The notes under the pieces are model-generated. The model was not told where the DNA came from and ran no database searches. It was given only the letters and a program-made list of their open reading frames with translations. A stretch of DNA of 30,616 bases, from positions 1 to 30,616 of IMG/VR virus record IMGVR_UViG_2671180357_000001, one strand, 5' to 3'. Position numbers and translations under genes: made by a program. Each line of letters starts with the position of its first letter. Position 1 is the stretch's first letter. Shown piece after piece: positions 1 to 20,513 of the stretch. The stretch comes from a virus. Its lineage: Duplodnaviria; Heunggongvirae; Uroviricota; Caudoviricetes.

Positions 1-338
1 TGATCTGGGTCGTACTTCAGCACATTAGGAAAATAGAACTGCTGCGCACCATATGCATCATAAACAGCCATAGAGTGGCCTTGCACAGTTACGAACTTGG
101 CAATCTGTCCGTTATATACCGGATATCCGGCAGCGTTAATGATGATTGGTTGTGAAACAGGAACGTGAGAACCATCCTCATTCTCCACATAAACCTGAAT
201 CTGGTTTTCAGGATTTACCGGGTCAGTGTCAATTTTTCCTATATAAATTTTGCCATTGGCAACCGCTTTAAAAGAACGAGCCATAGTGAAGAGTTGCGAA
301 GGCATGCTTACCACAACATTTGCGGTGATATCTGACAT
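1..338 (-). CDS. Tailspike protein, N-terminal head-binding domain (5' part only; gene continues beyond the window start)
   Basis: Minus-strand translation from ATG at 338 reads [61 protein letters not shown]..., matching the recalled P22 gp9 head-binding domain; GGAG 7 nt upstream. Not in the ORF track because it is open at the window edge. Confidence 0.8.
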
Positions 339-363
339 TTCATTGCTCCAGACGAATGATATG

Positions 364-386
364 ATGCAACCATGATGTGATTGCAT
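364..386. promoter_or_regulatory. Inverted repeat ATGCAA-N11-TTGCAT in the mnt/tailspike divergent intergenic region; candidate operator
   Basis: Perfect 6-bp inverted arms read in the sequence between two divergent starts; function inferred only. Confidence 0.25.
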
Positions 387-459
387 ACAGAAATGGTACT
401 ATTGAGTATTTATCCAGTAGGTTACGATGCCATTCCACCCAACTGGTGAGGCATCAAGG

Positions 460-720
460 ATGTACAGCAAATACGACGAGGCGCAGTTTCACTTGAGACT
501 TCCGCATGAACTCCACGCGAAAATTAAACAGCGTGCGAAGATGAATAACAGGTCGCTGAACTCAGAGATAATTGCAGCGATTGAAGAATCATTGACTAAA
601 CAAAGCTCTGCATCAGTTTACATTGACGATGCAGAGCGTATTGCAGACCAACAATCCGATATGGTAAAGAAAATTGTCTTTGATACGCTCAGAGATTTAT
701 ATAAAAAAGACTGCAACTAA
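460..720 (+). CDS. mnt: Mnt-like ribbon-helix-helix repressor
   Basis: ORF 427..720; from Met12 the product aligns with recalled P22 Mnt, especially the C-terminal DAERIADQQSDMVKKIVFDTLRDLYKK; GGTGAGG upstream of ATG 460. Confidence 0.75.
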   Translation: MYSKYDEAQFHLRLPHELHAKIKQRAKMNNRSLNSEIIAAIEESLTKQSSASVYIDDAERIADQQSDMVKKIVFDTLRDLYKKDCN

Positions 721-737
721 CCATCCGTGGCTTTCCG

Positions 738-2969
738 TTACTTCTGGTTATCATCACTGTTCATCCAGTACATGATGCCTAGCCTTGATATGGTTTTCTT
801 ATCTGATTCTGGAAGTGAGTTGTAAAACGGGCGCCAAGCAGAAGAGCGTCTTACAGTTGTATCAACGATGCTTTCTGGTGCTTGTTTTACTGCCAGCCTT
901 GCTGCTTTCTGGAATTCTGGTGAGCTAATTAGCTTTTCTGCAGATTCCATTGATGCAGCGCCGCCCATCGCCCTGATTTTGCTGGCGACTTTTGCCCCAA
1001 TTTCTGACCCAGCAACAGCACCTACTGCACTGAACGGTCCTGACACAGTTGAACCAACCGCAGTGCCAATGCGTTGGGAATGGTTAGCAACAAATTCATT
1101 TGCCGCAGTGACGCGATTAAACCGTTTGACGAACTCGTTTAGTCTTCCTGTAGTTATCTCGTAAGATTTTGCGTCTTTGATAGCCTTTGCGACCTTATAT
1201 ACATCGCTCAGACCTGACATAGTCTCTTTTGGTAAATGTCGGGCAAGATTGCGCATCTGCCCGTTTGCTAACATGTTTTGATACCAGTCAGCAAACCCTG
1301 CAGGATTAAAATCAGCGCCACGTTTTCCGTTCGAAAGCATATCCCGAAGACCTGTTCCCAGTAGCTCGGTTCTTAGCTTCCTGGACGGCGTGTTTTGCAT
1401 CAATTCACGAAATCCTTTGGCATCGCCTTTCGACATTGCCTGTAGTGCTGTAGTTGCTTTGCGAGAAACATCACCGTTCAGCGTTCTGCCAGTTAGATTA
1501 ATCATTTGCTCTTCCATGCTTTTTCGCATCTGAACAAGCCTCTGAGCAACTTCAAAATCACGTAATGCATTTGTCTCTGACAGCGCCGCCTTTTGATCAT
1601 CGGCGAGCGAACCGTAAAGCCTCGATAAAGCAGCGCGATCAGCATCTTTATATGGTCCAGAATTCTTATGAAGTGCATCACCAACAAGTCGTCGTTGCTT
1701 ATTGAGATTTGCATAAGTTAATGCGCCGTTCTTGCCTGGATTAACTGCCCGAAAGACTCTCTTTTCAATAGGGTCAAGGTTTTTCATCCCGCCAAGATCT
1801 TCTGCCACCTGTTTGAGCATTGACCTTGTTGATGGCGCATCAATTTTTGCACCTGCAGGCATCGCCTTTTCAACATTGCGATAAAGCTGGTCGCTTCGTT
1901 TCATCAGCGCAGACATTCTTCCATTGACCGTATCAATAAACTTGTCGCTCATACCAAGAGCATCTTTTGCACCGGAAACGCGATCAATTATCTCCCCCGC
2001 GCCCTGTGCTAGCTGCCTGATTGCTTCATTTTCCTGCACCTGTAGAGCAGAACCCGCACGGGACTTGATTGCTTGCTCAACTGCCTTGTATTGCTCGTTC
2101 CCGGAAAAGTGTGAAGGGAGTAATGAATCAACATTAAGCCTTTCAGCAGACTCCAGAACTTCAGCCTGAGGATTGATATCTAGTTCATCAAGTGATGAAG
2201 CGAGATTTGGCCTTTTTTGTGCTGCTACTGTGCGAACGACTTCCTCTGGGTTCCTCGTCGCAGGCGTCATTGGTACACCTTGTGCTACTCTTGCCTCTGC
2301 GGCATGAACCGCAGGATTTGTTGCTGCAGCGGCATCACCGGAGAATGGTGATGTTTCTGTTGGCGCAGTGGTCGCTCTCTGTGCAGATGTTTTATTGCCA
2401 CTAATTATATTTGATGCACCACGAACACCACGGGTAACGCCATTTATCAGGCCATGCGTAGCAATGTTAAGTCCGGCATTAATAGCGGCATTTTCGGCAA
2501 AATCACCCCGTTGATTCGCCGCGTCAGCGAGAGAACCAATGACCATGTTTCCAGCTACACCTGCTCCAGGAACAAGATAACCGCCTATTGACTCTCCAGC
2601 TTGCGCGTAGGGGTCTGTCGGTCTGTCTACTGGACGATAAACATCATCCAATACTTTTGGCCCCCCAAGCCCCTGACTGATTGCATTAATCAGACTTGCG
2701 CCACCCTGCAATACGTCAAATGGTATGTTTACCAGACCACGACCAGCCTGTTCTGCAATTTGCCCTGCACTTTGACCACCAGTGAGCCAATCGCCAGCTT
2801 GTTGCATCAATGATGGTTCTTCCCGTGTTGGTGCATTATTGGCCTGATTAACTGTTTGTTGCTGAACAGCCTGACCAGCAAAATACTCATCAATGGCGGT
2901 GCCAATATCTTCGGTGCTCGTACCATCAGGAAAGGTAAATGTCTTACCGTTTGCAGTTACTTTCATCAT
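738..2969 (-). CDS. Ejection/internal protein, P22 gp16-like
   Basis: Last gene of the gp7-gp20-gp16 order; N-terminus [15 protein letters not shown]; 743 aa with Ala/Gly-rich low-complexity stretches. Confidence 0.7.
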
Positions 2970-4432
2970 TCCACCGTAAATTGAATGCCTGATTTTGAGG
3001 TATATGATCCGGATTGACTCTGCTGCTGTTGGGTATTTGTCGGTTGTTGACTATTGCTCTGTTGTTGACTATTTGCAGCACTTGAAACCACCAAAGCATC
3101 ATAAACGCGACCAGACTGACCACGTAATGAGTTATATTGGCCCTGCATTTTTCGCATTTTTGTTTCAGTAGCAGCCTTGGAATCACCGGGCTGAGGCAGG
3201 TACATTTTGGAATACTCCTGCATCTCTGGCAGAGTAATTGCTGCACCTGTTTCTGGGCGCAAAATTGCATACAAGGCGTCTCTCGCATTTACCATATATT
3301 GCTGCTCCGCTGGTGATAGGCTTAAATTTGCAATAGTCCCATCACCAAGAGAGCGATTTATTAATGCAACTCGCTTAGGGTCAATGCTTTTACTAAGCTG
3401 ATTCATTGAGTCCATTGAATCTTTTAATCGCAAAGCAAATCCCGCCGCCTTCTTGGAACCCTCATTAGCCTTATCTATGATGCTTTGCGCTTGTGGCAAG
3501 CTAATTGGTTTAATGCCATCACCAGATATAGGTTGGTTTAGTTTTCCGGCTTCCTCGCTGCCATCGGTGTAATACTTAGTTACCGAGCCATCAGGATTGG
3601 TTTCAACCTTAAGTAATTTCTTAGCATTGGGATTAATTCCCGCCGCTGCCGCAAATGCCGCTGCACCATCTGGATCTACCTTTAACATTTGCGCGTACTG
3701 ATTGTAATTCTGCATTGCGGCTGTTGGTGCATATGCTGACGTTAACGCATTTGCTCGGCTAATATCCTGCCCTCTCGCCTGAAGTGCTTCACCAGCCTGA
3801 TTGCTGCGGATTGTCTCTGCCAGTCTGCCTCGGTCAATCTCACGACCAGCCATCTTGTCCTGAACATTGAAGTAATCAATCGGACCAAGAGCAGCCATCC
3901 CAAGGTGATCAACAAACTCACCAAATCCTGAAGGATTCTGCTGATACATCTGAGCAACGCTGTTAGGGTCAACACCGACGCGAGTCAGTTCCTTGGCGTT
4001 GTTTTGCAGCCATGATTGCATTGCTTCTGGAGACGATGACGCAAGGCGTGCGCCAGCCGCTAAGGTGCCGATAGAATTGCGCTGGTCTTCATCAATGAAT
4101 CCCATGCCTTTGCGAACAGATTCAATCTGGTCTGGATATTGAGTAGCCAACTGACGCAAAGCACCGCGATCACCAGACGCATAAGCATTAGCGTATGCCT
4201 GCTGAAATTCTTTCTGCCGCTGAGCCTGCTTTTCCTGCTTAAACACACCCGCAATACCTGAAAGGCCTTGCAAAGCAGTCAGCCCAACATTGTTAGCGCC
4301 TGAACGCTCAATATCATTGTTCTGCCTGATAAGCTGAAGCGTATTGCCGATGTCATTTACGCTAGGAGCGTTTGAGTTGACGCCACCGATACCAGCCAAC
4401 AATCCGCCATTTGTTCCTTTCCAAGTAGCCAT
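2966..4432 (-). CDS. Ejection protein, P22 gp20-like
   Basis: Position between gp7-like and gp16-like genes; 488 aa, Gln/Ala-rich; stop overlaps the next start. Confidence 0.7.
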
Positions 4433-4441
4433 GATTACCCC

Positions 4442-5137
4442 TTAAAACAACGATCCAAGCAGGCCAAGTCCGCCGCCAATTGCCGCACCTAATCCAGTGC
4501 CAAGTCCGGGAACAATAGAGCCAAGAGCAGCGCCAGTCATAGCCCCTGAAGCTCCACCGCTAATTGCTGTCTGAAGGCCTGATGGTTTATTGGCGTTAGC
4601 AGCGGCAAGTGCTGCGCTTTGCTGCGCAATGCTGCTCATGTTGTTGGCGTATGTCTGCCCGGCGTTCGCCTGACCTTGCAGCGCACCAAGGCCAATGTTT
4701 GCCATATTGTTGTAGTTGCTCATCTGGTTCGACAACCACGACTGACCGAGAGTCGGGGCAATCGTGGCCAGTTGATTGCTTGTAGCTGTCGAACCAAGTC
4801 CGCCAGTCGCCTCCGCAGCAGCAAGACTCTGGTAACGAGCCTGACCTGCAAGGTCTTTATACTGCTGAGAATTGTAATACTGATTAAGTGCCTGCCCCTG
4901 ACCTTCTAAACTGGAAAGATTCTGAAGCTGGTTAACATACTGCTCCGCAAGCGGCGTGAACGGAGCAAGGTTTTTCATGATCGTCTGCCACTGCTGATTT
5001 TGCAGGTCTGCGGCATACTTCTGGGCTTCTGCTGCATACTTTGCGCTTTTATCAGAGCTACCACCTTTCCCGCCTTTTTCAGGACACCAAGGTTCCTCGC
5101 CGCGCAGTTTTCTGCCCAGCTTAAATGCATATAACAT
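4442..5137 (-). CDS. Ejection protein, P22 gp7-like
   Basis: 231 aa, N-terminus MLYAFKLGRKLRGEEP and Gly-rich C-terminus; position after gp14-like gene. Confidence 0.7.
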   Translation of the reverse strand: MLYAFKLGRKLRGEEPWCPEKGGKGGSSDKSAKYAAEAQKYAADLQNQQWQTIMKNLAPFTPLAEQYVNQLQNLSSLEGQGQALNQYYNSQQYKDLAGQARYQSLAAAEATGGLGSTATSNQLATIAPTLGQSWLSNQMSNYNNMANIGLGALQGQANAGQTYANNMSSIAQQSAALAAANANKPSGLQTAISGGASGAMTGAALGSIVPGLGTGLGAAIGGGLGLLGSLF

Positions 5138-20113: not shown

Positions 20114-20513
20114 GGCTTTCACCATTAAAAAGTCGCTTGTAAGCATCAATGTCTCGTTTTGCTTCACCAAGCTTTCGTCTTAATTCCATGTTTTCTGATT
20201 CAAGCTTTTCCATATCTTGCTGGTATCGATCGCGGTGTTCTTTCCATGCTTTTCGATACGCCTTCATGTATGTCGTTTTGGCCTTTCTCTTTGCCTGACG
20301 AACTGCGTGGTGGTTTTCCACAAACCAGTCAGGGTCGTTAAATGCTGCTCTGGCGCATGTATACCAATAATTTGTTGCCTCCCTGTTTAGCCAACAAATA
20401 CTGATAAATGGCAACTGTATCGACACCATTTTTCGTTGAGACTCTTTCTCGCCAAACATGTGCCCTTTTTTGATGCTAAGGCCAAATCCAGGTTGAATTA
20501 AAAGCATTGTCAT
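20106..20513 (-). CDS. Hypothetical protein (about 136 aa) with coiled-coil C-terminus
   Basis: ORF 20106..20549 trimmed to the ATG that overlaps the NinE stop as ATGA; no family recognised. Confidence 0.45.

Follow-up and report, generated by a model that had tools for sequence, protein, structure and literature searches.

Positions 339–737 of the window (the whole stretch of 30,616 nucleotides analyzed here) appear, by a modest balance of probability, to be a minimal "ant moron", i.e. the mnt end of the immI region, in which an intact Mnt with its own promoter and operator forms a chiefly self-contained autoregulated unit. The open reading frame at positions 460–720 is a genuine and intact Mnt-family repressor that displays both defining domains. 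It is the only gene held by the 339–737 segment, as in the Mnt-only "ant morons" of the ST64T/L/ST104 type (Villafane 2008).

The mnt locus

The window is a P22-like (Lederbergvirus) genome of the E. coli/Shigella prophage type. Its positions 1–1200 display 95.7% DNA identity to Shigella phage Sf101. The features are:

1–338, minus strand: 5′ part of the tailspike gene (P22 gene 9 homologue, N-terminal head-binding domain), which exits the window at the left edge
346–349, minus strand: tailspike Shine-Dalgarno GGAG, 8 nt ahead of the AUG, predicted from sequence
364–386, minus strand: ATGCAA-N11-TTGCAT, a probable hairpin with a 9-bp stem AUGCAAUCA/UGGUUGCAU with a 5-nt loop in tailspike-sense RNA
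385–399, no strand assigned: candidate Mnt operator, 15-bp dyad ATACAGAAATGGTAC, family consensus rTACCnAAAnGGTAy
402–428, plus strand: predicted Pmnt, −35 TTGAGT (402–407), 15-bp spacer, −10 TACGAT (423–428)
426–455, plus strand: inverted repeat GATGCC-N18-GGCATC with inner CACC/GGTG, from the −10 end to the mnt Shine-Dalgarno
445–451, plus strand: mnt Shine-Dalgarno GGTGAGG, 8 nt ahead of ATG 460, aligning with P22 GGAG
460–720, plus strand: mnt homologue of 86 aa, ribbon-helix-helix head and Mnt tetramerization coiled coil, divergent from the tailspike
738–2969, minus strand: DNA-ejection protein at the P22 gene 16 position, from the open reading frame and synteny (Sf101, E. coli prophages)
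19219–19944: Rha and KilAC gene, which starts 8 nt inside a NinF-like open reading frame of the nin operon

The tailspike ATG is at positions 338–336 of the minus strand, and the translation gives the conserved P22-type head-binding domain. This N-terminal sequence matches the tailspikes of P22, Sf101 and Gally, and the gene is annotated "tailspike" in Sf101, HK620 and Sf6. The block CTGGAGCAA at the tailspike Shine-Dalgarno shows no variation in any relative. The ejection gene is convergent with mnt, with 17 bp separating the two stop codons; PGAP names it either "P22-gp16 family phage DNA ejection protein" or "lytic transglycosylase domain-containing protein". Thus mnt occupies the slot between the gene 16 and gene 9 homologues and is transcribed away from gene 9, as seen from the open reading frame map and from synteny with P22, Sf101, ST160 and Gally. 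A preliminary description of this DNA had placed an mnt-like open reading frame divergent from the tailspike across 121 bp, and both the coordinates (intergenic region 339–459, gene 460–720) and the content are as it claimed.

The Mnt protein

For mnt the best start is ATG 460, with a stop at position 720; PGAP gives genes of the same 261 bp in E. coli relatives. An upstream in-frame ATG at position 427 was rejected as a start. It lies within the −10 region, and its counterparts in the relatives from Buttiauxella and ST160 are in another frame or run into a stop codon.

The 86 aa sequence is similar to P22 Mnt in PDB entry 1mnt at residues 6–79 (E = 7.9e-20) and to the tetramerization domain in entry 1qey (E = 2.8e-9). 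Pfam places the ribbon-helix-helix domain (Arc, PF03869, E = 7.2e-15) at residues 7–49 and the C-terminal coiled-coil tetramerization domain (Repressor_Mnt, PF11423, E = 8.6e-15) at residues 57–82, so that the head extends over approximately residues 7–49 and the coiled coil over approximately 56–84. The helix-B N-cap motif NNRSLNSE is kept. Identity with P22 Mnt is 51%, and the match of Arc to this protein is weak (E approximately 1e-3). The earlier assignment to Mnt is therefore sound.

The label "partition protein ATPase" or "chromosome segregation ATPase", which is found in RefSeq, GenBank and PHROG_795, was rejected, as the 86 aa chain displays only the Arc and Repressor_Mnt domains. The PHROG_795 name is borne by P22 mnt itself in NC_002371, and the label is thus a misnomer. 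The Sf101 genome paper does not mention the gene (Sf101 gp14).

The DNA-reading strand is (K4)Y5..Q9-F-H11-L-R13, compared with R2..H6-F-N8-F-R10 in P22 Mnt. The four residues Arg2, His6, Asn8 and Arg10 of P22 Mnt align with Tyr5 (with Lys4 beside it), Gln9, His11 and Arg13, and are not the set expected for a protein of P22 Mnt specificity. In the work of Knight and Sauer from 1989 and 1992 these P22 residues are said to read GGTCCAC-C-GTGGACC. The Q-F-H-L-R strand together with a different N-terminal arm sets the protein in a specificity class apart from P22 Mnt.

The candidate operator

The dyad at positions 385–399 sits where Omnt is annotated in P22, 1–2 bp upstream of the Pmnt −35 (2 bp from TTGAGT here). 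It is retained in relatives that were found independently of the motif (Sf101, IME10, L010–L014, JEP4, VSe13, L135 and L137–L139), the upstream flanks of which differ or are unrelated, and it is present in Escherichia, Salmonella, Buttiauxella, Citrobacter and Serratia. Across 78 protein-selected loci, TACC and GGTA never vary except in the window allele (2/78). Perfect symmetry of the dyad is seen in JEP4, L011 and L012 (TACCGAAACGGTA) and in L137 (GTACCAAAATGGTAC). In the Citrobacter relative L138, mnt has a stop at codon 5 and the operator is damaged too (GGTA to AGTA).

The operator also co-varies with the reading strand over three Mnt classes:

H-F-N-F-R (P22 Mnt): dyad GGTCCAC-C-GTGGACC
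Q-F-N-L-R: dyad AGACCAC-N-GTGGTCT
Q-F-H-L-R (window): dyad TACCnAAAnGGTA

This agrees with the preliminary description, which had noted a reading strand unlike that of P22 Mnt and expected a different operator; the residues do differ, and the candidate operator differs with them.

The window copy carries the change C389A in the otherwise invariant left half-site, the consensus form being ATACCGAAATGGTAC. The change is common to the window, seven E. coli genomes and 2 of the 78 IMG/VR loci. Because it alters an otherwise invariant base, binding of the half-site is probably weakened, and this particular copy of Mnt may be a poor binder of its own operator.

A search of the window for a second operator, allowing up to three mismatches to the 15-mer, gave a sole other match, inside the coat gene, and TACC-N5-GGTA with one mismatch was found nowhere in the window close to a promoter. 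An exact-motif scan of IMG/VR gave at least 55 matches that adjoin mnt; the others lie mostly in coding DNA (at least 120 stretches listed). A motif pair ahead of small open reading frames in one unrelated phage group was matched by nothing in the collections of phage and E. coli genomes and was treated as coincidence.

From homology and conservation, the Mnt operator is likely the dyad at 385–399 and not the repeats named in the preliminary description. Mnt would most likely bind it as a tetramer.

Absence of arc and ant

A tblastn search of the whole window with P22 Arc, Ant and SieA gave nothing beyond a match of the Ant C-terminus at E = 0.25, which falls inside the nin-region KilAC gene. 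Sufficient flanking sequence is present in 78 of 80 protein-selected IMG/VR relatives. All 78 read tailspike(−), an HNH gene in 9 cases, then mnt(+), and none of these loci contains arc, ant or a KilA/Rha gene of the JEP4 type. Thus arc and ant are absent, as had been proposed, and so is sar. The "KilA" gene beside mnt in JEP4 and the 241-aa open reading frame of the window are of equal length and are not homologous.

The left edge of the window is within the tailspike gene, so there is no arc/ant pair just past the edge in this arrangement, a case that the preliminary description had named as one that would speak against an orphan Mnt. The equivalent sequence of Sf101 beyond the edge is the remainder of the tailspike followed by oac.

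It had also been suggested that Mnt may control a distant ant, i.e. the KilA-C gene at position 19944. As the start of the Rha/KilAC gene overlaps the upstream NinF-like open reading frame of the nin operon, it has no separate promoter region, and no operator-like site (up to three mismatches to the 15-mer) is found near positions 19944–20120. The gene therefore appears to be outside of Mnt control, and this suggestion did not hold.

Inverted repeats and RNA hairpins

The two inverted repeats of the preliminary description are present where it had placed them: ATGCAA at 364–369 with TTGCAT at 381–386, and CCAGT at 414–418 with ACTGG at 442–446. Neither is beyond chance when taken alone. Shuffled 121-bp sequences contain two or more six-base repeats in 19% of trials and seven or more five-base repeats in 7%. 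As operators they are poor candidates. ATGCAA-N11-TTGCAT is missing from JEP4, VSe13, L010–L012 and L137–L139, which have the same Mnt DNA-binding head and all retain rTACCnAAAnGGTAy beside the −35, and CCAGT-N23-ACTGG is gone in the JEP4-type lineage and is not conserved.

ATGCAA-N11-TTGCAT is kept in the lineage of the window, where 55 of 78 loci are identical over the 25 nt ending at TTGCAT. Its nature is indicated by the sequence changes that it has sustained. Escherichia sp. L135 displays the double compensatory change ATTCAA/TTGAAT, and its Mnt residues are unchanged (Q-F-H-L-R). Since the two arms changed together and the Mnt residues did not, an RNA hairpin fits better than an Mnt site. 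In the L021 and L123 variants pairing survives only as G.U on the tailspike-sense strand. The hairpin at 364–386 ends 25 nt ahead of the tailspike AUG, and its 9-bp stem is found in both the minimum free energy and the centroid folds of the minus strand. Other lineages, P22 among them, have at the same distance from the AUG a non-homologous hairpin, CCGUAGC-CAU-GCUGCGG, which is 94.5% paired and whose wobble pairs are valid only on the tailspike-sense strand. ATGCAA-N11-TTGCAT is thus probably a hairpin of the tailspike 5′-UTR and not an Mnt operator.

The explanation in which one or both of these repeats are the operators, or in which Mnt controls the KilA-C gene, is highly improbable. The presence of both repeats, the retention of ATGCAA/TTGCAT in the window lineage and its one compensatory change are on its side. 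Against it are the chance level of the repeats, their loss in relatives with the same Mnt head, the co-variation of the L135 arms while the Mnt residues stayed the same, the better pairing on tailspike-sense RNA with a non-homologous hairpin at the same place elsewhere, and the position of the KilAC gene in the nin operon.

The GATGCC-N18-GGCATC repeat in the mnt leader has an outer helix that is 97% paired over 13 sequences representing three Mnt classes, and covarying changes in it are few. As an RNA structure it was rejected (fold energy z = −1.1, sparse covariation) and it is kept as an observation only. An Rfam scan of positions 1–1200 gave no match.

Promoters and transcription

The predicted Pmnt, with an expected start at approximately position 435, is the positional homologue of the Pmnt annotated in P22 (TTGAGA-17-TATCAT). 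All Mnt classes share, without variation, TTG in the −35 and T, A and T in the −10. Pmnt is the top mnt-sense match to a position weight matrix (8.5 bits); the same matrix recovers P22 Pant (16.8 bits) and P22 Pmnt (14.4 bits) as the top match on their respective strands. The spacer is 15 bp in 72/78 relatives and 17 bp in 6/78. A 15-bp spacer gives the predicted Pmnt a poor look.

P22 Pant is TTGACA-17-TATATT. The homologous hexamers here are ATGGCA and TAAATA with a 15-bp spacer, and the −10 equivalent reads CAAATC in sister lineages with the same Mnt head. The equivalent of Pant thus appears to have decayed in the window, and a complete immI region, with arc and ant behind an Mnt-controlled strong Pant, is not found here.

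A different explanation is a functional tailspike-directed promoter, either descended from Pant or ancestral to it, that starts in the operator and is repressed by Mnt directly, so that upon relief the prophage tailspike is expressed independently of the late operon. This is unlikely. The geometry is P22-like, and the best tailspike-sense match, ATGGCA-17-AATACT (7.0 bits), would start inside positions 385–399; the placement of the operator, between mnt and the tailspike 5′-UTR, is the same across all lineages and genera. However the candidate is weak (8 of 12 consensus bases) and is not conserved, as sister lineages have CAAATC and the best scores in ST160 and Gally are at most 5.8 bits and at non-homologous positions. 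A consensus scan of positions 1–3200 gave no minus-strand promoter.

Evidence from other phages also bears on this explanation. Villafane et al. suggest a possible influence of Mnt/Arc on tailspike levels. Gally, an LF82 prophage, has an orphan mnt that belongs to the Q-F-N-L-R class, and transcription of its mnt/tailspike end is independent of that of the late genes (bioRxiv 10.1101/2022.10.28.514194); by RNA-seq in macrophages mnt and the tailspike are up 7- to 50-fold and terS, terL and portal are down. This co-induction could mean that orphan modules have a regulated tailspike-directed promoter that is underrated by promoter scoring. The strandedness of the Gally data is not stated, however, and an extra same-strand gene upstream could give read-through.

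Distribution and selection

Positions 320–740 of the window are matched in 282 of 5426 complete E. coli genomes (approximately 5%), and the 121-bp intergenic region in 245 of 5426. All 52 distinct coding sequences of this Mnt class are intact, with lengths of 84–97 codons (86 in 31/52). The dN/dS values of mnt relative to the window copy are 0.14–0.83, mostly 0.2–0.5, from small counts. The mnt gene and its operator thus appear clearly maintained and under selection.

The cassette could instead have lost its function and be a relic of an immI region in decay, a possibility raised by Zaworski et al. for phage L. The loss of arc and ant, the decay of Pant, the altered invariant base in the window operator, the 15-bp promoter spacer and the pseudogene in L138 are in line with this. 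It is nevertheless very improbable in view of the intact coding sequences with dN/dS below 1, of an operator, −35 TTG and −10 T/A/T that are kept across genera while adjoining DNA turns over, and of the frequency of the module in E. coli.

Function of the lone Mnt

Under the preferred explanation, that of a chiefly autoregulated unit, Mnt would be made from its own weak sigma-70 promoter (402–428), probably in the lysogen as in P22. A tetramer would occupy the single 15-bp dyad that abuts the Pmnt −35, between mnt and the tailspike. The strong leftward promoter under this operator (Pant in P22) would have decayed here, and because of this decay the cassette would now be chiefly a self-contained repressor/operator unit. 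At most, bound Mnt would also shut off a weak start that remains within the operator and is directed toward the tailspike. Transcription of the tailspike itself would come from the late operon, in which it is the last gene, and would read antisense straight through mnt. No terminator-like sites were found in positions 339–760 on either strand, and their absence between gene 16 and the tailspike was counted in favor of late read-through. The operator, promoter and start site in this scheme are predictions based on homology and conservation.

A repressor that acts only on itself has no obvious selective value, yet the gene and operator are maintained, which suggests that a target outside of the window has likely been missed. 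Such a target could be in an incoming phage, another prophage or the host genes.

Related to this, the lone Mnt may be a trans-acting immunity factor that silences the ant promoters of superinfecting or co-resident P22-like phages and so shields the resident C2 from foreign Ant. P22 Mnt does act in trans on Pant and has a maintenance function against Ant (PMC7380047, PMC2629481), antirepressor cross-talk between prophages is documented, and mnt is under purifying selection without a cis target. On the other hand, no operator of this class is found ahead of ant, arc, Rha or KilA among the at least 120 IMG/VR matches listed, nor at the promoters of the ant operons in JEP4, Citrobacter L138 and Serratia L139, where C2-like or ribbon-helix-helix repressors of their own are used. 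In classical P22/L genetics phage L, which has an orphan mnt, is not known to protect against P22 Ant, and this also counts against trans-acting immunity. The explanation is unlikely.

A more speculative possibility, and a very unlikely one, is that mnt-operator-tailspike is an ancestral and still-working switch, in which Mnt gates a stress-responsive tailspike promoter independent of the late operon, and that the arc-ant of P22 was inserted behind it later. A hint in this direction is that mnt and the tailspike of the Gally prophage are induced together in macrophages. If it were so, lysogens could make free tailspike (O-antigen depolymerase) without lysis.

Mnt and Arc are textbook models of beta-sheet DNA recognition. 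With Q-F-H-L-R and the predicted operator rTACCnAAAnGGTAy, the module contributes a third natural class of Mnt specificity and extends the Arc/Mnt recognition code. It also sharpens the question of why selection retains Mnt in thousands of P22-like prophages in which there is no antirepressor for it to control. On the practical side, a propagated misannotation is corrected and a conserved tailspike 5′-UTR hairpin is flagged. The current understanding of P22-like phages is left unchanged by these findings.

Comparison with known systems

P22 Mnt displays the same two domains, lies in the same gene 16/9 slot in the same orientation, and likewise has a dyad that abuts its own −35. It differs from the window protein in its reading strand (H-F-N-F-R), N-terminal arm and operator (GGTCCAC-C-GTGGACC). 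The immI region of P22 has arc, sar, ant, sieA and a strong Pant, whereas the window is without these genes and its Pant is degenerate. P22 Arc has the same ribbon-helix-helix fold, and its strand, Q-F-N-L-R, is nearer to the Q-F-H-L-R of the window than that of P22 Mnt is. However Arc is 53 aa long, is without a tetramerization tail (the window protein has the PF11423 tail) and has a 21-bp operator between −35 and −10.

There is nothing unusual in the arrangement, as reports from 2008 and 2020 describe Mnt-only "ant morons" in ST64T, ST104, Para1 and L (PMC2629481, PMC8022706). In ST64T, ST104, L, SE1, ST160, Gally and Proteus phage Brookers a lone mnt is divergent from the tailspike, with a dyad beside Pmnt and without arc or ant. 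Unlike that of the window, the Mnts of these phages are of the Q-F-N-L-R class with the dyad AGACCAC-N-GTGGTCT, and one or two extra small genes usually lie beside mnt, whereas in the window mnt is alone. The tailspike 5′-UTR segment of the window also differs from those of the Q-F-N-L-R orphan modules. The finding, although real, is an ordinary one, since modules of this layout are frequent and have been reported before.

The nearest relatives are Sf101 gp14 and the unannotated homologues in IME10 and APC_JM3.2, which are the same gene with the same intergenic region as the window; Mnt protein identity to the window is 90.7% in Sf101 and 91.9% in IME10. The E. coli "Arc family DNA-binding protein" beside P22-like tailspikes is also the same gene as the window mnt. 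Copies of the Sf101/IME10 type have the consensus operator ATACCGAAATGGTAC, whereas the window has C389A.

Gene layout and identity of Mnt

The window comprises most of a P22-like (Lederbergvirus) genome in reverse orientation. The tailspike start, three ejection-protein genes, the tail and head genes, the terminase, the lysis genes and the nin region are on the minus strand and the C2-type repressor is on the plus strand. Positions 1–1200 display a 95.7% identity over the full length to Shigella phage Sf101, and positions 1–728 a 93% identity to E. coli phage IME10. The features around mnt are as follows.

338, minus strand: tailspike ATG; the product opens with the conserved head-binding domain
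385–399: candidate Mnt operator, ATACAGAAATGGTAC, from dyad homology and conservation; its centre is ~43 bp 5′ of the expected transcript start
402–428: predicted Pmnt, TTGAGT-15-TACGAT, from the weight matrix and homology/conservation
426–431 and 450–455: arms of the inverted repeat GATGCC-N18-GGCATC, which encloses a CACC/GGTG pair and reaches from the last bases of the Pmnt -10 up to the mnt Shine-Dalgarno
460–720, plus strand: mnt, ATG to stop, 86 aa, preferred start

With the tailspike ATG at 338 and the mnt ATG at 460, the intergenic region is 121 bp (339–459), as first described. A Shine-Dalgarno sequence, GGTGAGG, is found 8 nt 5′ of ATG 460, and the 261-bp equivalent gene called by PGAP in E. 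coli prophages agrees with this start. An in-frame ATG at 427 is the less likely start: it is inside the -10 region, and in remoter relatives it either is not in frame or has a stop after it.

Among solved structures, the window protein hits both parts of Mnt, the N-terminal domain (1mnt, E = 8e-20) and the tetramerisation domain (1qey, E = 3e-9), and Pfam returns Arc and Repressor_Mnt. The Mnt assignment of the preliminary description is thus solid. The names “partition protein ATPase” and “putative chromosome segregation ATPase” that RefSeq, GenBank and PHROGs give to Mnt (Sf101 NC_027398 gp14, P22 NC_002371 mnt, PHROG_795) are a propagated misannotation; in IME10 and APC_JM3.2 mnt is left without annotation.

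P22 Arc, Ant and SieA as queries give no match anywhere in the window, which bears out the description of an orphan mnt without arc or ant. The left edge of the window falls within the tailspike gene (the next gene in Sf101 is oac), thus an arc/ant pair cannot hide past the edge in the present arrangement. The locus encodes an intact Mnt-family protein with an altered DNA-reading strand, alone between gene 16 and the tailspike gene and widely conserved. There is no terminator-like site on either strand separating gene 16, mnt and the tailspike gene, and the late transcript should therefore read antisense across mnt into the tailspike gene.

Candidate operator and specificity classes

Alignment of the mnt-upstream sequence of P22, whose record annotates Omnt, Pmnt, Pant and Oarc, with those of ST160, Gally and ten window-class members shows a -35 (ATTG...), a -10 (TA..AT) and a dyad directly 5′ of the -35 in common columns. 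The dyad sequence varies by class and tracks the DNA-reading strand. P22 and epsilon34 have the reading strand H-F-N-F-R and the dyad AGGTCCAC-C-GTGGACCT, whereas ST160, Gally and Brookers have Q-F-N-L-R and AGACCAC-N-GTGGTCT; the window's class has Q-F-H-L-R after a different N-terminal arm, and the dyad rTACCnAAAnGGTAy. The core CC-N5-GG is invariant in all three classes.

Relatives of the window's class were collected without use of the motif (by DNA similarity, tblastn or a protein-pattern search). All of these keep the dyad, and the DNA just 5′ of it is of at least three unrelated sequence types. Some copies are perfect palindromes: TACCGAAACGGTA in JEP4 and two related loci (L011 and L012), and GTACCAAAATGGTAC in a Buttiauxella prophage. 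In 78 loci selected by protein similarity, only the window's allele departs from TACC and GGTA. The changed residues and the class-specific dyad are consistent with the expectation that the operator should differ from that of P22, and the site at 385–399, placed by homology, should replace the earlier operator proposal. New here, if modest, are a third class of natural Mnt specificity, for which an operator is predicted, and the operator-variant allele in the window. In this allele, C389A, the half-site TACC, elsewhere without variation, becomes TACA. The same change is seen in 7 complete E. coli genomes and in 2 of the 78 IMG/VR loci; the window and these two loci have three different Mnt protein variants, all intact. 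In the Citrobacter locus L138, mnt (4001–4252) has a stop at codon 5 and the invariant GGTA half of the dyad (3925–3939) is changed (ATACCGAAATAGTAC), which suggests that gene and dyad are decaying together.

The exact 15-mer ATACCGAAACGGTAC is also present in unrelated phage contigs of 54% GC (L019, L024, L048, L059, L087, L096, L103 and L124); six of these eight have two copies spaced by 515 bp. Each copy displayed comes just behind a TATATA box, with a small ORF ~22 nt further on. For L019, the sole such contig with ORFs listed, the next large ORF (534 aa) is putatively a terminase large subunit by resemblance. Nothing in the phage and E. coli collections matches these contigs, and no Arc/Mnt homologue is found in the fetched flanks; the occurrence is probably a coincidence.

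Inverted repeats and a probable tailspike leader hairpin

The preliminary description named two inverted repeats, ATGCAA-N11-TTGCAT and CCAGT-N23-ACTGG. Both are present where they were placed, but neither is a leading candidate for the Mnt operator; taken on their own they are within the range of shuffled sequence, with p of about 0.19 and 0.07, respectively. CCAGT-N23-ACTGG is not conserved. ATGCAA-N11-TTGCAT (364–386) is confined to the window/Sf101/IME10 lineage and is unlikely to be an Mnt site, since it is missing from lineages that share the Mnt head.

The 364–386 repeat does look functional. An Escherichia sp. relative has both arms changed (ATTCAA-N11-TTGAAT), and in two further variants pairing survives solely through G.U on the tailspike-sense strand, where the repeat folds as a 9-bp stem that ends 25 nt before the tailspike AUG. 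A stem-loop is found 25–27 nt 5′ of this AUG in all P22-like lineages examined. The hairpin of the window lineage, AUGCAAUCA...UGGUUGCAU in minus-strand RNA, is non-homologous to the P22-type hairpin, CCGUAGC-CAU-GCUGCGG, which is located 27 nt before the AUG in the other lineages, P22 (L004, about 1085–1105), epsilon34, ST160 and JEP4 among them. The P22-type hairpin is 94.5% paired in 13 sequences, and eight one-sided changes keep pairing by wobbles and are mismatched on the other strand. Because of the strand-specific pairing and the analogous hairpin elsewhere, the 364–386 repeat is read as a probable lineage-specific version of a conserved tailspike 5′-UTR hairpin, also a modest novelty. 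A role in mRNA processing or stability is a guess.

P22 L004 displays at about 1085–1230 a direct repeat of ~20 bp, (a)gc(a/g)tggctacggtgaatttt, whose two copies closely follow the ant terminator and closely precede gene 9, respectively. The enclosed ~120 bp is absent from epsilon34 and looks like an insertion or duplication scar.

GATGCC-N18-GGCATC, a third repeat that the preliminary description did not name, is conserved in all three Mnt classes, with weak energetics and covariation; P22 has CATGTCA...TGGCATG at the equivalent position. As its 5′ arm is upstream of the predicted Pmnt start, RNA pairing could occur only in read-in or antisense transcripts.

Promoters and the possible target of Mnt

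Promoters were scored with a simple sigma-70 weight matrix from Hawley-McClure base frequencies. In P22 the top site of either strand is the annotated promoter, Pant at 16.8 bits and Pmnt at 14.4 bits. In the window, as in three further orphan modules, the Pmnt homologue is always the top mnt-sense site, at 8.5–11.8 bits. The window lineage (72 of 78 relatives) has a 15-bp spacer (408–422), against 17 bp for JEP4-type lineages, the two differing by a 2-bp “tt” indel immediately 5′ of TACGAT; because of the 15-bp spacer Pmnt of the window is predicted to be weak.

Tailspike-sense sites in the same four modules reach at most 7.0 bits and are not conserved in position. The window hexamers homologous to Pant are ATGGCA and TAAATA; the promoter controlled by Omnt in P22 is decayed in the window. 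A 7.0-bit candidate, ATGGCA-17-AATACT, has its predicted start inside the operator, as does P22 Pant, and for this reason there may be a weak, Mnt-repressed start directed at the tailspike gene.

The preliminary description also proposed that Mnt may regulate a distant ant, i.e. the KilA-C gene at 19944.

19219–19944, minus strand: Rha + KilAC gene, 241 aa, flanked by NinB-like and YbcO-like genes
20113–19937, minus strand: NinF-like ORF, 58 aa, cysteine-rich, overlapping the Rha/KilAC start by 8 nt; it is not in the ORF lists, which were run at ≥90 aa

From these neighbors and the overlapped start, the Rha/KilAC gene belongs to the nin operon and lacks a separate promoter region, and no operator-like site is found at it. 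The proposal of a distant ant finds no support. The ant morons of JEP4, Citrobacter L138 and Serratia L139 differ in containing Rha/KilA/Bro-type genes, upstream of mnt.

L005 (JEP4), 2770–4861: antirepressor region
L138, 4308–6467: antirepressor region
L139, 1072–3431: antirepressor region

Each has two antirepressor-type genes (Rha and KilA in the JEP4 annotation), transcribed toward mnt and tailspike, with mnt convergent; a divergent C2-like or ribbon-helix-helix repressor of their own precedes them. No Mnt dyad is found at the promoters of these genes.

The work of Vershon and colleagues from 1987 reportedly had P22 Mnt at Omnt leaving Pmnt unblocked, the known output being repression of the divergent promoter. 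By this P22 biology, Mnt in the window would likewise repress a divergent promoter and leave Pmnt unblocked. As the divergent promoter is decayed, the simplest account is a repressor/operator cassette that is self-contained and probably autoregulated, any tailspike-directed target being weak. Such a cassette leaves the selective benefit unexplained, and thus both direct control of the tailspike gene by Mnt and trans-immunity against foreign Mnt-controlled antirepressors keep real weight as rival readings.

Maintenance, occurrence and relation to known phages

All 52 distinct window-class mnt coding sequences collected are intact. Pairwise dN/dS against the window is 0.14–0.83, mostly 0.2–0.5, from small counts. 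A nearly identical DNA-binding head (residues 1–45) is found on three different C-terminal tails (related loci L003, L005 and L014 versus window 460–720), which implies recombination at the domain boundary; the head and operator would thus move as a unit.

Mnt homologues are present in 90 of 50,697 phage records by tblastn. ST160, Gally and Proteus phage Brookers have a lone mnt divergent from the tailspike gene, and SE1 has an Mnt of their class. The window's own module is also in Sf101, IME10 and 282 of 5426 complete E. coli genomes. IMG/VR loci (80) were chosen by protein similarity alone and 78 have sufficient flanking sequence; all 78 show tailspike (minus), at times an inserted HNH gene, then mnt (plus), and arc, ant and JEP4-type KilA/Rha genes are absent from all of them.

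The HNH endonuclease gene, on the mnt strand between tailspike and mnt, is present in 9 of the 80 loci (L140–L219). It is also in the related locus L013 (2496–3005), where a copy of the window-type tailspike start and intergenic segment is found just 5′ of mnt, downstream of the HNH gene and ~730 bp away from the locus's own tailspike start.

In Gally, the E. coli LF82 prophage, the mnt/tailspike end is 7- to 50-fold up in macrophages, strandedness being unstated, and terS, terL and portal fall in RNA-seq (bioRxiv 10.1101/2022.10.28.514194). Such orphan modules are therefore transcriptionally active in prophages; the Gally mnt is of the Q-F-N-L-R class, and Gally has an extra neighboring gene. 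ST64T, ST104 and Para1 hold mnt and one small gene only (Villafane et al., PMC2629481), and the mnt-only arrangement is already in the literature (Zaworski et al., PMC8022706). The original observation of a lone mnt is correct; as a variant of the P22 ant moron, the arrangement is common and has been described before.
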